The position numbers and the translations under genes were made by a program. Below the pieces are notes generated by a model. That model was not told where the DNA came from. It ran no database searches and saw only the letters and a list, made by a program, of their open reading frames with translations. This document shows positions 2,873-6,256 of a stretch of 64,000 bases of DNA, piece after piece. This DNA is from Escherichia phage vB_EcoM_ESCO10, in sequence record OM386655.1; one strand, 5' to 3'. Within the stretch, counting starts at the first letter, position 1; every line of letters starts with the position of its first letter.

Positions 2873-3556
2873 TTAGTTTAAACGAATAAAAGATGAGTTA
2901 CGTGTTTCACGAATAAGAATGGAACCGTCACGATTGATATAGTAAATCAAACTAAACAATGTTTGGTGTGCGCTTGCATGAGCAAAAGAAGTGGGGCGTT
3001 CTTTCCAGTCCGGGGTCTCTTTAATCCACTGGTAAATCCACCAAGGGAGGGTACAATACCCAGGAGCTTTGCCCAGCATAAGCAGATTAGGACTAAAATT
3101 TTCAGGTAATTTAAATTTAGGTTTTTCAGATTCAACAATCTTAGATACGGCTTCTTCGAACTTCTCTTCAACAAAAGGAGTTTCAACAACAGCTATTTCA
3201 ACTGTTCCTGGGGTATCTTTTATTTCAATAACTTCAACAGGTTCGGCAGGAGCCGTCGGAGCGTCAAACAATAATTTAGCTTCAATTTTAGATTCTTCAA
3301 CATTTGCCAGGTGAGCATTAGTGCCCTGAAGCTCATCGTCGGCATCGATTAAATCAGTAATAGATAAACCTTCAGTTTCAGGTATAGGTTCATCTGCTAT
3401 AGCCTTAAGGGCTTCAGCGATGTCTATTACCAAGTTGTCAAAACTTTTAGTTTTCTTAAGTTTTAAACCGAACTGTTCGCCGTATTCGATTAACTTAGCT
3501 TTAGCTTCTTTTTTATCTTCGAGTGAACGAAGCTCTTCAATATATTGAGTATCCAT
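2873..3556 (-). CDS. putative Inh-like protein (prohead protease inhibitor) by synteny and size; acidic
   Basis: 227-aa ORF immediately upstream of hoc as in T4; no motif recognised. Confidence 0.4.
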   Translation of the reverse strand: MDTQYIEELRSLEDKKEAKAKLIEYGEQFGLKLKKTKSFDNLVIDIAEALKAIADEPIPETEGLSITDLIDADDELQGTNAHLANVEESKIEAKLLFDAPTAPAEPVEVIEIKDTPGTVEIAVVETPFVEEKFEEAVSKIVESEKPKFKLPENFSPNLLMLGKAPGYCTLPWWIYQWIKETPDWKERPTSFAHASAHQTLFSLIYYINRDGSILIRETRNSSFIRLN

Positions 3557-3575
3557 AATTAGTCTCTTGTTGGTG

Positions 3576-3583
3576 TATAAATA
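3576..3583 (+). promoter_or_regulatory. T4-type late promoter TATAAATA upstream of uvsW
   Basis: exact TATAAATA ~29 nt before uvsW ATG. Confidence 0.45.
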
Positions 3584-3612
3584 TAACTATATTTATTACT
3601 GGGATTATTCCA

Positions 3613-5109
3613 ATGAAGATTAATGTACATTTTGAAGATTTTAGTCATGTCCGAATTGAGTGTGACGATTCCACTTTCTTCGAACTCAGAGACTATTTTA
3701 GTTTTGAAGCCGATGGCTATAAGTTTAACCCAAAGTATCGTTATGGCCAATGGGATGGGAGAATTCGTCTTCTAGACTATAATCGTAAACTCCCTTATGG
3801 TCTGGTTTCACAGATGAGAAAATTCGCAGACCAATTCGAATACCAACTGTGGATTGACCCCCGTATCACCGAAACTGAAGAAATTTCTGAAACCGAATTA
3901 AAAGAATGGATTGCTTCTAAAGAAATCTATTCAGGTAATACTAAGATTGAGCCTCATTGGTATCAAGCTGATGCCGTATTCAATGGTCTTAAACATCGTA
4001 GACGCATTCTTAATTTACCTACATCCGCAGGTAAATCATTAATCCAGGCACTCCTGGCGCGTTATTACGTAGAACATTATGAAGGTAAAATTCTTATCCT
4101 TGTTCCTACTACTGCTCTCGTCGACCAGATGATTAATGACTTCGCTGATTATCGTTTATTCGGTAAACAACATATGCTTGGTATTCGAGCTGGTACCAAA
4201 CGTGATTCAGACGCAATGATTTATGTTTCAACTTATCAAACGGCTGTTAAACAACCTAAAGAATGGTTTGCTCAGTTTGGTATGTTTATGAACGACGAAT
4301 GTCACTTGGCTACAGGTAAGAGTATTTCTACTATTATTGAAGGTCTTACTAATTGCATGTTTAAATTTGGTTTGTCTGGTTCTTTAAAAGACGGTAAAGC
4401 TAACCTGATGCAATACATGGGTTTGTTTGGTGATATTTTTAAACCTGTTTCCACCTCCCAATTAATGGAAGAAGGACAGGTCACCGATTTAAAAATAAAC
4501 AGTATTTTCCTTAGATATCCAGACGAATTCACTGTTAAGATGAAAGGTAAAGATTACCAATCAGAAATTAAAGTCATTACTAAGGCTACTCGTCGTAATA
4601 AATGGGTTGCTAATTTAGCTGTTAAGCTCGCTAAGAAAGAAGAGAACGTATTCTTGATGTTTAAAAACATCGAGCACGGTAAAACTCTTTTTGAAATGGT
4701 TAAAGAGCAACATAAAGAAGTTTATTACGTATCAGGCGAAGTTAATACAGAAACTCGTAATGCTCTTAAGTTAATGGCGGAAAACGGTAAGGGTATTATT
4801 GTTGTGGCAAGTTACGGTGTATTTTCTACAGGTATTTCTGTTAAGAATCTCCATCACGTAATATTTGCCCATCCTGTAAAATCTAAAATTATTGTACTGC
4901 AAACCATCGGTCGTGTACTTCGTAAACATGACAGTAAACAAGTCGCGCAAGTTTTTGATATCATCGACGACATGGGCGTGAAACCTAAATCCAAAGATTC
5001 TAAAAAGAAATACGTTCACCTAAATTATGCATTAAAACATGGATTGGATCGTATTCAACGATATGCAGACGAGAAATTTAATTATGTCATGAAAGAGGTC
5101 CAAATTTGA
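3613..5109 (+). CDS. uvsW: UvsW DNA/RNA helicase (SF2)
   Basis: near full-length match to T4 UvsW as remembered; Walker A LPTSAGKS, DECH box. Confidence 0.95.
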   Translation: MKINVHFEDFSHVRIECDDSTFFELRDYFSFEADGYKFNPKYRYGQWDGRIRLLDYNRKLPYGLVSQMRKFADQFEYQLWIDPRITETEEISETELKEWIASKEIYSGNTKIEPHWYQADAVFNGLKHRRRILNLPTSAGKSLIQALLARYYVEHYEGKILILVPTTALVDQMINDFADYRLFGKQHMLGIRAGTKRDSDAMIYVSTYQTAVKQPKEWFAQFGMFMNDECHLATGKSISTIIEGLTNCMFKFGLSGSLKDGKANLMQYMGLFGDIFKPVSTSQLMEEGQVTDLKINSIFLRYPDEFTVKMKGKDYQSEIKVITKATRRNKWVANLAVKLAKKEENVFLMFKNIEHGKTLFEMVKEQHKEVYYVSGEVNTETRNALKLMAENGKGIIVVASYGVFSTGISVKNLHHVIFAHPVKSKIIVLQTIGRVLRKHDSKQVAQVFDIIDDMGVKPKSKDSKKKYVHLNYALKHGLDRIQRYADEKFNYVMKEVQI

Positions 5110-5801
5110 ATTATCAAAAAATTTATGACAATTTAATTAGAAGCCGAAAGGCTTCTAAACCTGAGGGTTATACAGAATCTCATCATATTATCCCGTCATG
5201 TATTGGCGGGCCTGATACTCAGGAAAATAGAGTACGCCTTACCCCAGAAGAACATTTTATAGCTCATAAATTACTAGCTAAAATTTATCCAAATAACTAC
5301 GGACTCATAAAAGCTGTTATTTCTATGGGTATGAGTTCCAGGACTCATAAAAGACAATTTAGTAAATCATACGGCTGGGAACGTAGACAATTGGCAATTC
5401 TTCAGACTGGCGAAGGAAATCCATTTTACGGTAAGCACCACACTGAAGCTCATAAAGAATACATGAGCAATTTATTTAAAGGTAGACCTATTTTATGGGG
5501 CGATAAAATATCCGCAACTAAAAAAGCGAATCCTTATAAATACACACAAGAACAATGTCAAGCTATATCTGAAAGAAATTCTGGGGTCGGCAACGGCATG
5601 TATGGTAAAAATCATACACCAGAAGCTTCTAAGAAAATTTCAGATAAAGCTAAAGAAAGATATAAAGACCCATCTAAAAACCCGGCAGCTAAAAAGGTTA
5701 CTATACATGGTGTTGAATATGGCTCGATGAAACAAGCTTCCGAAGCCACGGGTCTTTCTCGTCACAAAATCAGAAATTTAATGAAACAGGTGGATTTATG
5801 A
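5106..5801 (+). CDS. HNH homing endonuclease with NUMOD-like DNA-binding repeats
   Basis: HHIIP...N...H motif; two G-N-x-YGK-H-T-E repeats; 4-nt overlaps with uvsW stop and uvsW.1 start; apparent TTG start after AGAGG. Confidence 0.8.
   Translation: MNYQKIYDNLIRSRKASKPEGYTESHHIIPSCIGGPDTQENRVRLTPEEHFIAHKLLAKIYPNNYGLIKAVISMGMSSRTHKRQFSKSYGWERRQLAILQTGEGNPFYGKHHTEAHKEYMSNLFKGRPILWGDKISATKKANPYKYTQEQCQAISERNSGVGNGMYGKNHTPEASKKISDKAKERYKDPSKNPAAKKVTIHGVEYGSMKQASEATGLSRHKIRNLMKQVDL
5106..5801 (+). mobile_element. free-standing homing-endonuclease gene inserted between uvsW and uvsW.1
   Basis: T4 has segE upstream of uvsW, not an HNH gene at this junction. Confidence 0.5.
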
Positions 5802-6025
5802 AGTCCTTTAAAGAAGTTATCTATGAAGCCTCTATCGAGAGCTTCATGTCTAAAATTAGTTCTTGCCAAACCATGGACGGTTTGGAGGAATTGGAGAAGT
5901 ATTACAAAACCCGAAGTAAAGAAGCCGAACTTCGTGATTCGGATGATATCAGTGTCCGTGATGCCCTAGCAGGTAAACGATCTGAATTAGAATCTATGGA
6001 TGATGACGAAGAAGAAGAGTTCTAA
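5798..6025 (+). CDS. uvsW.1: UvsW.1 small acidic protein
   Basis: 75 aa, acidic C-terminus, position after uvsW. Confidence 0.7.
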   Translation: MKSFKEVIYEASIESFMSKISSCQTMDGLEELEKYYKTRSKEAELRDSDDISVRDALAGKRSELESMDDDEEEEF

Positions 6026-6028
6026 AAC

Positions 6029-6057
6029 AAAAAAAGGCCCAACCTTTCGGAAGGGCC
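6029..6057 (-). terminator. intrinsic terminator ending leftward uvsY operon
   Basis: GGCCC...GGGCC hairpin followed on minus strand by T7. Confidence 0.5.
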
Positions 6058-6088
6058 AATAACCATAAAAATGGCTATACACACTAGA

Positions 6089-6256
6089 CTAAAGCAATAA
6101 TTGTGTTTCGTTCAGCTGTTCTTCAGTGTTTTCCGTAACAGGCAGGCTTTGAACGTAATTATAACATGGACCCGGATGAACCGGACCTTTTTCTGTTTCA
6201 ACAACCAATGCAGCATCGATTGGAGTTTTACAGACAACGCAAATCTTATCTGACAT
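6089..6256 (-). CDS. small protein (55 aa), uvsY.-2-like position
   Basis: hand-translated MSDKICVVCKTPIDAALVVETEKGPVHPGPCYNYVQSLPVTENTEEQLNETQLLL; AAGGAG SD 7 nt upstream. Confidence 0.5.
   Translation of the reverse strand: MSDKICVVCKTPIDAALVVETEKGPVHPGPCYNYVQSLPVTENTEEQLNETQLLL

Follow-up and report, generated by a model that had tools for sequence, protein, structure and literature searches.

A probable Mob-type HNH homing endonuclease gene at the uvsW/uvsW.1 junction of Escherichia phage vB_EcoM_ESCO10

An HNH gene overlapping uvsW and uvsW.1

We analyzed a stretch of 64,000 nucleotides (nt) from Escherichia phage vB_EcoM_ESCO10 (OM386655.1; hereafter the window), using open reading frames (ORFs) taken from a six-frame list. 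One of these ORFs, at the junction of the helicase gene uvsW and uvsW.1, is very probably a free-standing, selfish HNH homing endonuclease gene (HEG) of the T4 Mob (MobE-like) family. The window represents a Dhakavirus-type (JS98/VR5-like) relative of T4, and its gene order, hoc and inh (minus strand), uvsW, HEG and uvsW.1 (plus strand), then uvsY.-2, uvsY, 25 and 26 (minus strand), is the same in annotated relatives. As originally predicted, the HEG overlaps each neighbor by 4 nt: the uvsW stop codon TGA (5107-5109) and the HEG TTG (5106-5108) share TTGA, and the HEG stop (5799-5801) and the uvsW.1 ATG at 5798 share ATGA. The predicted locus is likewise correct; the picture of a gene strictly wedged between its neighbors is not, as the HEG lies in frame within the last six codons of uvsW.

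Table 1. Features of the uvsW/uvsW.1 locus, with positions in the window
Feature	Position	Strand	Description
T4-type late-promoter consensus	3576..3583	+	TATAAATA; 29 nt 5' of uvsW ATG
uvsW helicase gene	3613..5109	+	498 amino acids (aa); Pfam UvsW_N 1.4e-43, ResIII, Helicase_C
Foreign donor-type uvsW 3' tract, PSD2002-like	4930..5105	+	76-84% identical to VR5; VR5 identity 93-100% on either side
Substitute uvsW tail	5086..5109	+	GTC ATG AAA GAG GTC CAA ATT TGA (V-MKEVQI*); holds HEG Shine-Dalgarno
HNH homing endonuclease gene (HEG)	5106..5801	+	231 aa; putative TTG start within TTTGA, stop within ATGA
HNH (beta-beta-alpha-metal) nuclease core	5166..5279	+	residues 21-58: GYTESHHIIPSCIGGPDTQENRVRLTPEEHFIAHKLLA
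Candidate catalytic residues	H27 5184-5186, N41 5226-5228, H50 5253-5255	+	
First NUMOD3-like repeat	5403..5510 (approximate, from motif)	+	about residues 100-135, GEGNPFYGKHHTEAHKEYMS
Internal late-promoter consensus in HEG	5535..5542	+	TATAAATA; codons P-Y-K-Y
Second NUMOD3 repeat	5538..5642	+	residues 145-179; best Pfam stretch
Predicted C-terminal I-TevI-like helix-turn-helix DNA-binding module	5691..5780	+	residues 196-225
Native uvsW tail after insert	5781..5801	+	ATGAAACAGGTGGATTTATGA (MKQVDL*), original frame; last 6 HEG codons and stop
uvsW.1	5798..6025	+	75 aa; Pfam UvsW-1 (PF11637) 3.8e-24; 100% identical to VR5 UvsW.1 protein
GC-rich hairpin	6030..6062 (hairpin at about 6036-6057)	.	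GGCCC ... GGGCC; between converging uvsW.1 and uvsY.-2

The uvsW and uvsW.1 ORFs are complete and directly abut the HEG, and UvsW has the same length as in the HEG-less phage VR5. A search across 4700-6200 for group I or II introns or other RNA families returned no Rfam match at E<=1. The HEG is free-standing, outside any intron or intein. No paralogs of it were found elsewhere in the window, and its GC content (0.362) does not differ from that of its flanks (0.363).

The N-terminal region of the HEG raises the question of where translation starts. Codon 74, past the HNH core, is the first in-frame ATG, with no intervening GTG or TTG; the original prediction that no in-frame ATG precedes the HNH motif is thus confirmed. 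Upstream, a TAA at 5079-5081 closes the frame, leaving eight codons open before the TTG, and AGAGG (5094-5098) stands 7 nt before the TTG, together with GAGGT at 5095-5099. We compared orthologs from annotated phages and metagenomic contigs, covering about ten lineages with 13 uvsW-junction genes tabulated. TTG occupies the homologous codon in five lineages (the window with PSD2002 and UP19, SP18, T6/HY03, a Bp7 variant described below, and L098), and ATG occupies it in Klebsiella phages Roth77 and Wolf_ER13 (MNYEKHY), L094 (MNYQKIY), L095, Morganella phage Rgz1 and T4 MobE. Because some orthologs have ATG at this codon, followed by the same N-terminus (M-N-Y-x-K-I-Y), the originally proposed TTG preceded by AGAGG (position 5106) is validated as the putative start. 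A TTGA or ATGA overlap with the upstream stop codon is found in 11 of the 13 tabulated genes; L095, and T4 MobE at nrdA, have a TAATG overlap instead.

All TTG lineages have an anti-Shine-Dalgarno match of at least 5 nt (GAGGT, AGGTG or GAGGTG) at a spacing of 5-6 nt, whereas four of the five ATG lineages have matches of only 3-4 nt. Over about ten lineages, this pairing of TTG with a strong and ATG with a weak Shine-Dalgarno sequence suggests that initiation strength is tuned. An RNA hairpin masking the ribosome-binding site was considered and rejected, as folding of 5066-5145 gave a structure that is not significant (z = -1.17) and in which the Shine-Dalgarno sequence is unpaired. In two HEG-less IMG/VR loci, uvsW.1 itself appears to start at a non-ATG codon, TTG within TTGA preceded by AGAGG (L159) or GTG (L144); hence non-ATG starts are neither unusual nor endonuclease-specific at the uvsW/uvsW.1 overlap. 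The RefSeq coding sequence (CDS) of the SP18 ortholog (NC_014595.1; 2955-3554 of the extracted locus) begins at an internal ATG, 32 codons after the conserved TTG, which drops the first HNH histidines and is probably a mis-annotation.

The encoded protein belongs to a known homing endonuclease family, as had been predicted. It matches PHROG phrog_655 "homing endonuclease" (1.1e-53), the family to which T4 MobE is annotated, and is 36% identical to MobE by BLASTP (E=6e-27, about 219 aligned positions). The N-terminal domains of the two proteins are almost superimposable (MNYQKIYDNLI...GYTESHHIIPSCIGGPDTQENRVRLTPEEHFIAHKLLAKIYP in the HEG protein, MNYQKIYNDLI...EYKETHHIIPRCMGGSDDKENLVELTAREHFIAHAILSKIYP in MobE), with the common pattern MNYQKIY...HHIIP..GG.D..N.V.LT..EHFIAH. 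In an alignment of 64 database homologs, E24, H27, P30, C32, G35, N41, L45, H50 and H54 are invariant and include a His-Asn-His signature; H26-H27, N41, H50 and H54 are all present in the HEG protein. Pfam NUMOD3 (PF07460) matches the protein in two stretches (7.8e-12, 45.4 bits against a cut-off of 20.4). The HNH motif and NUMOD-like repeats noticed originally are therefore both borne out, the former by the invariance of H27, N41 and H50.

An AlphaFold2 model built from the homolog alignment (mean predicted local distance difference test score, pLDDT, 87.6) contains a beta-beta-alpha unit formed by strands 24-27 and 42-45 and helix 47-60, followed by a string of short helices and a terminal beta-beta-helix-helix module. 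Fold-search matches include the I-TevI DNA-binding domain, GVE2 HNH and I-HmuI, and TIGR01453 (group I intron endonuclease, I-TevI type) gave a below-threshold match at residues 108-227. The architecture is an N-terminal Mob-type HNH nuclease, two NUMOD3 repeats and a predicted C-terminal I-TevI-like helix-turn-helix. Ratios of nonsynonymous to synonymous substitution rates (dN/dS) of 0.05 against PSD2002, 0.10 against UP19 and 0.07 against SP18 indicate that the gene is under purifying selection.

Tail duplication, imported tract and distribution

At its downstream end, the HEG runs into a sequence that belongs to uvsW, a duplication that goes beyond the original prediction. In HEG-less Dhakavirus genomes, uvsW ends TAC GTA ATG AAA CAG GTG GAT TTA TGA (MKQVDL*), the final ATGA starting uvsW.1. 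The native tail that follows the insert in the window is identical at 21 of 21 nt to the uvsW end in HEG-less VR5, JS98 and others, and carries the uvsW.1 Shine-Dalgarno sequence (AGGTGG) as well as the ATGA overlap. Upstream of the insert, uvsW now ends on a substitute tail, of which ATG AAA GAG GTC CAA ATT TGA is identical to the native tail at 15 of 21 nt; the AGAGG Shine-Dalgarno sequence of the HEG exists because of a Q-to-E change in this substitute. As read from the two tails, the arrangement keeps UvsW full-length, gives the HEG a putative ribosome-binding site and spares the uvsW.1 Shine-Dalgarno sequence and ATGA; since these last two are intact, the three cistrons stay linked by stop/start overlaps.

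Related arrangements are seen in other lineages. T6 retains the AAAACAGTTAATTTATAA of T4 3' of the HEG body (RKTVNL*), and its uvsW ends MKEVKL*. In SP18, both sides of the insert carry AATTAAACAGGTGGAAAT, an exact direct repeat of 18 nt. In Roth77 and Wolf_ER13 the HEG is shorter, uvsW has a native-type MKTVNL* tail, and the HEG shares only its last two codons with that tail. The HEGs of Rgz1, L094, L095 and L098 each finish with a short tail of their own, and no copy of the uvsW tail is evident there, in a comparison that did not include HEG-less relatives of these. Where two tail repeats are present, we speculate that they could allow precise loss of the element.

The sequence around the HEG is mosaic. 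Apart from uvsW, identity between the window and HEG-less VR5 is 95-100%. The 3' end of uvsW is foreign (Table 1), positions 4948-5800 are 96.4% identical to PSD2002, and VR5 identity returns exactly where the HEG body ends. Judged from these identities, the imported unit spans about 4930-5780 and comprises the HEG preceded by about 175 nt of foreign uvsW 3' end, with essentially no downstream tract. When HEG-bearing T6 and HY03 are compared with HEG-less T4, a dense cluster of shared substitutions is seen in the last ~115-130 nt of uvsW, and only 1-4 of 400 positions differ downstream of the HEG. Such a pattern is what homing with one-sided co-conversion would be expected to leave, the converted side being that of the cleavage site. 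The predicted target would accordingly lie at the junction or in the 3' end of uvsW, and the foreign tract of the window is a candidate location of target or immunity polymorphisms. HEG-linked UvsW C-termini tend to carry VFD, KSKDS and KHGL, and HEG-less ones VWD, KSANA and KHAL; F or Y at the VFD position is found in seven of 12 HEG-bearing alleles and in none of 20 HEG-less ones. TACGTA versus TATGTN was tried as a target or immunity signature and rejected: TAC/TAT is polymorphic among HEG-less alleles, and HEG-bearing UP19 keeps TACGTA.

A second divergent tract lies in the 5' third of uvsW (3601-4200). It is 68-87% identical to VR5 and all other relatives, with flanks that are 95-100% VR5-like, and nothing in the phage collection matches it better than about 81%. 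This uvsW allele, which has no close match, may have been left by a further recombination or homing event. In T4-type phages, SegE is known to target uvsW (PMC2988022).

In a tblastn search, 1084 phage records contained members of the HEG family. All full-length orthologs with at least 57% identity adjoin uvsW, and every ortholog inspected (48-99% identity) is at the uvsW/uvsW.1 junction, in Dhakavirus, Gaprivervirus, Tequatrovirus (T6), and Klebsiella and Morganella phages. Occupancy is low: six of 124 Dhaka/Gapriver-type matches, 49 of 884 matches to a T6 query, and two of 62 IMG/VR loci encoding UvsW.1, these two, both T6-like, being the only ones at the junction in an IMG/VR search for further close orthologs. 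VR5, the closest backbone, and most other relatives lack the gene, which is patchy rather than fixed; an ancestral gene with a conventional start, a possibility raised with the original prediction, does not fit this distribution. The same arrangement recurs in at least 12 genomes or contigs that were sequenced independently and is therefore neither chance nor a sequencing error. Proteins 97-99% identical to that of the window are deposited in GenBank at the same locus for PSD2002 (UCR81248.1, "hypothetical protein") and UP19 (CAI9865852.1, "homing endonuclease"). More distant annotated orthologs are SP18 YP_003934820.1, T6 ORF179 AXN58218.1 (still labeled "hypothetical protein"), HY03 AKJ72715.1, and those of Roth77, Wolf_ER13 and Rgz1.

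Other genes were observed at the same junction. Bp7 (2989-3771 of the extracted locus) and UGJNEcP3/4 carry a different HNH gene of 260 aa. The Bp7/UGJNEcP3 gene shares with the HEG the insertion point, a TTG-in-TTTGA start with GAGGTG upstream, and an N-terminal HNH region (55% identity over 65 aa), whereas its remaining ~195 residues are unrelated, have no Pfam NUMOD3 match and end on a tail of their own (FFEEIL*), not the uvsW tail. From these alignments, the DNA-binding region seems to have been exchanged at an insertion site common to both genes. In the IMG/VR locus L129 (UViG_2974786931), an unrelated hydrophobic ORF of 119 aa (1242-1601) sits at the junction with ATGA overlaps on both sides. 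Given the Bp7-type gene and this ORF, the uvsW/uvsW.1 boundary accepts insertions repeatedly, including cargo other than endonucleases.

Proposed expression and homing, and alternative explanations

The late-promoter consensus 5' of uvsW (Table 1) probably drives a transcript of uvsW, HEG and uvsW.1. Matches to this consensus are not above chance across the window (9 found, 7.3 expected), so that it is the position of this copy that argues for its function. Directly upstream of the HEG, a motif scan detected neither a sigma-70-like nor a T4-late motif. A further copy of the consensus lies inside the HEG; it is kept at nt 430 of the gene in PSD2002, UP19, SP18 and L094 and at nt 436 in L095, and is missing from the T6, Roth77 (Klebsiella), Rgz1 (Morganella) and L098 lineages. 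Its nucleotides are conserved between lineages that are otherwise close to saturated at synonymous sites. It may, speculatively, be a late promoter feeding uvsW.1, or simply reflect codon usage. The hairpin 3' of uvsW.1, which was read from the sequence and not called by a simple scan, is likely a bidirectional terminator ending the transcript. Its position matches that of a conserved bidirectional terminator described downstream of uvsW.1 in T4-like phages (PMC1524935).

The following scheme would account for these features. The HEG would be co-transcribed with uvsW from the upstream late promoter and translated from the TTG in the uvsW stop, either by terminating uvsW ribosomes or de novo from GAGGT/AGAGG 6-7 nt upstream, the weak TTG start keeping the nuclease level low. 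In a mixed infection, and by analogy with MobE, the presumably active protein would attack the uvsW/uvsW.1 allele that lacks the HEG, nicking or cutting it most likely either at the junction or within the final ~130-175 nt of uvsW. Repair by recombination with the HEG-bearing genome, again as in MobE, would then copy in the HEG together with the adjoining uvsW 3' end, and the element would presumably still be mobile today. The cassette itself, as the sequence comparison shows, sits in frame six codons before the original uvsW stop, with the replacement tail MKEVQI* doubling as the putative HEG ribosome-binding site, and the HEG ORF reads through the original tail MKQVDL* and uses its stop.

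An extended form of this scheme is possible, and we hold it tentatively, as doubtful when taken as a whole. In it the HEG would be a purpose-built cassette bracketed by two tail copies, the upstream one recoded (Q/T to E) to provide a Shine-Dalgarno sequence and paired with a deliberately weak TTG; the downstream tail, that of the recipient, would preserve uvsW.1 initiation and supply the stop, and the repeats would permit scarless loss restoring a cleavable allele; and the nuclease would find its target within the final ~130-175 nt of uvsW, VFD, KSKDS and KHGL serving as immunity alleles. If true, this would be a compact example of a selfish gene sparing a three-cistron overlap chain and providing for its own cycle of gain and loss.

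Several observations weigh against a mobile HNH endonuclease. The HEG protein itself has no Pfam HNH match at E<=0.1, and its HNH membership therefore rests on transitive homology and motif: PF01844 (cut-off 21.4 bits) is passed by T4 MobE (24.6 bits) and the Bp7 variant (26.7 bits), and among the 64 homologs Pfam finds NUMOD3 in 61 and HNH PF01844 in 34. Sequence matches in the PDB are no better than marginal (E=0.06), and the fold searches gave low scores. The HEG-linked polymorphisms do not hold throughout: SP18 and Roth77 have residues of the HEG-less type, L109 is a further exception to the UvsW C-terminal pattern, and UP19 is the exception at TACGTA. In the available portions of the full-text literature searched, no description was found of a homing endonuclease between uvsW and uvsW.1, of its target or of the tail duplication. 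The synonymous divergence (dS) of about 0.15 to the nearest relatives indicates that acquisition was not very recent. Finally, ortholog divergence runs roughly in step with host genera (84% identity to SP18, 58% to T6), so that the history of the gene may be largely one of vertical descent and loss rather than of frequent transfer.

This last point leads to the best-surviving alternative, that a formerly mobile HNH gene is now domesticated or persists by vertical descent, perhaps benefiting the host in recombination or repair beside UvsW, and that it has disappeared from most lineages, for instance through recombination of one uvsW-tail copy with the other. Fidelity to one site across at least five genera, with divergence tracking that of the hosts, is what such a history would leave, flanking direct repeats (18/18 nt in SP18, 15/21 nt in the window) would permit precise loss, and strong purifying selection is equally expected for a useful gene; moreover, the authors of PMC10448857 caution that homing cannot be inferred from sequence alone. 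The VR5 backbone joined to a sharp-edged PSD2002-type cassette, however, requires lateral exchange and not pure vertical descent, and in Tequatrovirus the HEG is linked to the same kind of foreign upstream tract. An occupancy of 3-6% is also typical for a selfish element in a gain/loss cycle, and the closest characterized relative, MobE, is an active homing nuclease (PMC2790892). We therefore regard domestication as unlikely.

Less probable still is a decaying, untranslated pseudogene whose TTG is a mutated ATG. The non-canonical start codon and the sub-threshold Pfam HNH scores would fit decay, and inactive HEGs such as I-TevIII are known in T4 (PMC2790892), but the frame is unbroken over its 231 codons, none of the catalytic residues varies, and dN/dS is 0.05-0.10. 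TTG is moreover kept in five lineages, always with a strong Shine-Dalgarno sequence, which points to selection on initiation rather than decay.

The idea that the HEG is not initiated separately, being either a sequencing-frameshift artifact or a UvsW-HEG fusion made by -1 frameshifting near the uvsW stop, could draw on the -1 relation of its frame to uvsW, the eight open codons before the TTG and the lack of an ATG start, but is hardly credible given the same frame relationship in at least 12 independent genomes or contigs, the TAA closing the frame upstream, the absence of an X XXY YYZ slippery heptamer in the uvsW frame at 5082-5106, a UvsW of 498 aa as in HEG-less VR5, and the NYQKIY after the TTG, which matches the residues following the initiator Met in MobE and ATG-initiated orthologs; the recurrence and the conserved family N-terminus exclude the frameshift that had been named as a possible refutation of the original prediction.

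We also found no support for the idea that the HEG split a longer uvsW into uvsW and uvsW.1, as for Aeh1 nrdA/mobE: all 66 UvsW.1 homologs compared are stand-alone proteins of 72-80 aa. The sole fused form seen is in T4 AF158101.6, where uvsW and uvsW.1 form one CDS of 587 codons (298-2061 of the extracted locus), a fusion attributed to sequencing error (PMC1524935, PMC6486255). Newer T4 assemblies have two ORFs, uvsW and uvsW.1, with a hairpin between them. In two phages with a gene at the junction, uvsW is annotated in two pieces, namely HEG-bearing T6 (MH550421; uvsW/uvsW-B, 997-2504) and Bp7 (two CDS both named uvsW, 1489-2992); it is intact in HY03. These splits could be sequencing errors or real disruptions.

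Relation to known systems

Mob-type free-standing HNH homing endonucleases are a well-known class in T4-like phages (PMC2988022, PMC2790892). We conclude that the HEG, most likely a selfish element of this kind, is an uncharacterized member of the class; with near-identical genes already deposited from the same locus, it is not a new gene. Its annotated orthologs share the junction, 57-99% amino-acid identity and mostly the same stop/start overlap. The window differs from them in joining a VR5-type backbone to the HEG cassette, its uvsW 3' end marking the boundary between that backbone and an imported PSD2002-type segment. The Klebsiella and Morganella orthologs differ in having an ATG start and no duplicated uvsW tail, and the T6 ortholog in having a hairpin and a separate Shine-Dalgarno sequence before uvsW.1.

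These comparisons have practical consequences. For annotation, the TTG at the uvsW stop should be taken as the correct start, as the RefSeq start in SP18 truncates the catalytic motif. The tail duplication and the pairing of TTG with its Shine-Dalgarno sequence offer a testable example of HEG insertion into overlapping, apparently coupled operons without harm to the neighbors. Furthermore, in T-even-type phages a different homing endonuclease site lies on each side of uvsW, that of segE upstream and that of the Mob-type HNH gene downstream, which matters for reading marker exclusion and mosaicism near uvsW.

T4 SegE is likewise a free-standing homing endonuclease flanking uvsW, and T6 and HY03 carry it alongside the HNH gene. 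It differs in belonging to the GIY-YIG family and in lying on the opposite side, between inh and uvsW, with its target in uvsW. Both T4 and T6 have segE upstream of uvsW (see also the review table in PMC2988022), and the original view of the HEG as a different insertion, with segE on the other side of uvsW, holds, T6 carrying both genes. In the window, the ORF list shows no segE between inh and uvsW, where the spacer is only 56 nt. With I-TevI and I-HmuI the HEG shares a small nuclease domain joined to extended small modules (NUMOD3 helices and a terminal helix-turn-helix). Unlike these two intron-encoded enzymes, it lies in no detected intron, and the nuclease of I-TevI is of the GIY-YIG and not the HNH type.

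The closest parallel is T4 MobE, a PHROG 655 protein of about 230 aa with NUMOD3 motifs and a near-identical N-terminal nuclease domain. MobE is wedged between nrdA and nrdB and overlaps the upstream stop and the downstream start, as the HEG does at uvsW/uvsW.1, and like the HEG it has no promoter of its own. Experiments have demonstrated that MobE is co-transcribed with the upstream nrdA, nicks nrdB of T2 (the HEG-less allele) at a mapped site and co-converts flanking markers (PMC2790892). Its site-specific nicking is thus experimental, whereas the nuclease activity and target of the HEG are predicted. The two genes also differ in locus and in start codon (TTG in the HEG, ATG in mobE), and at the C-terminus, where the HEG has a predicted I-TevI-like helix-turn-helix and MobE a Cys-rich tail (CPHCGKK...KC). 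Finally, the HEG, unlike MobE, runs into the original last six codons of its neighbor gene and ends on them.

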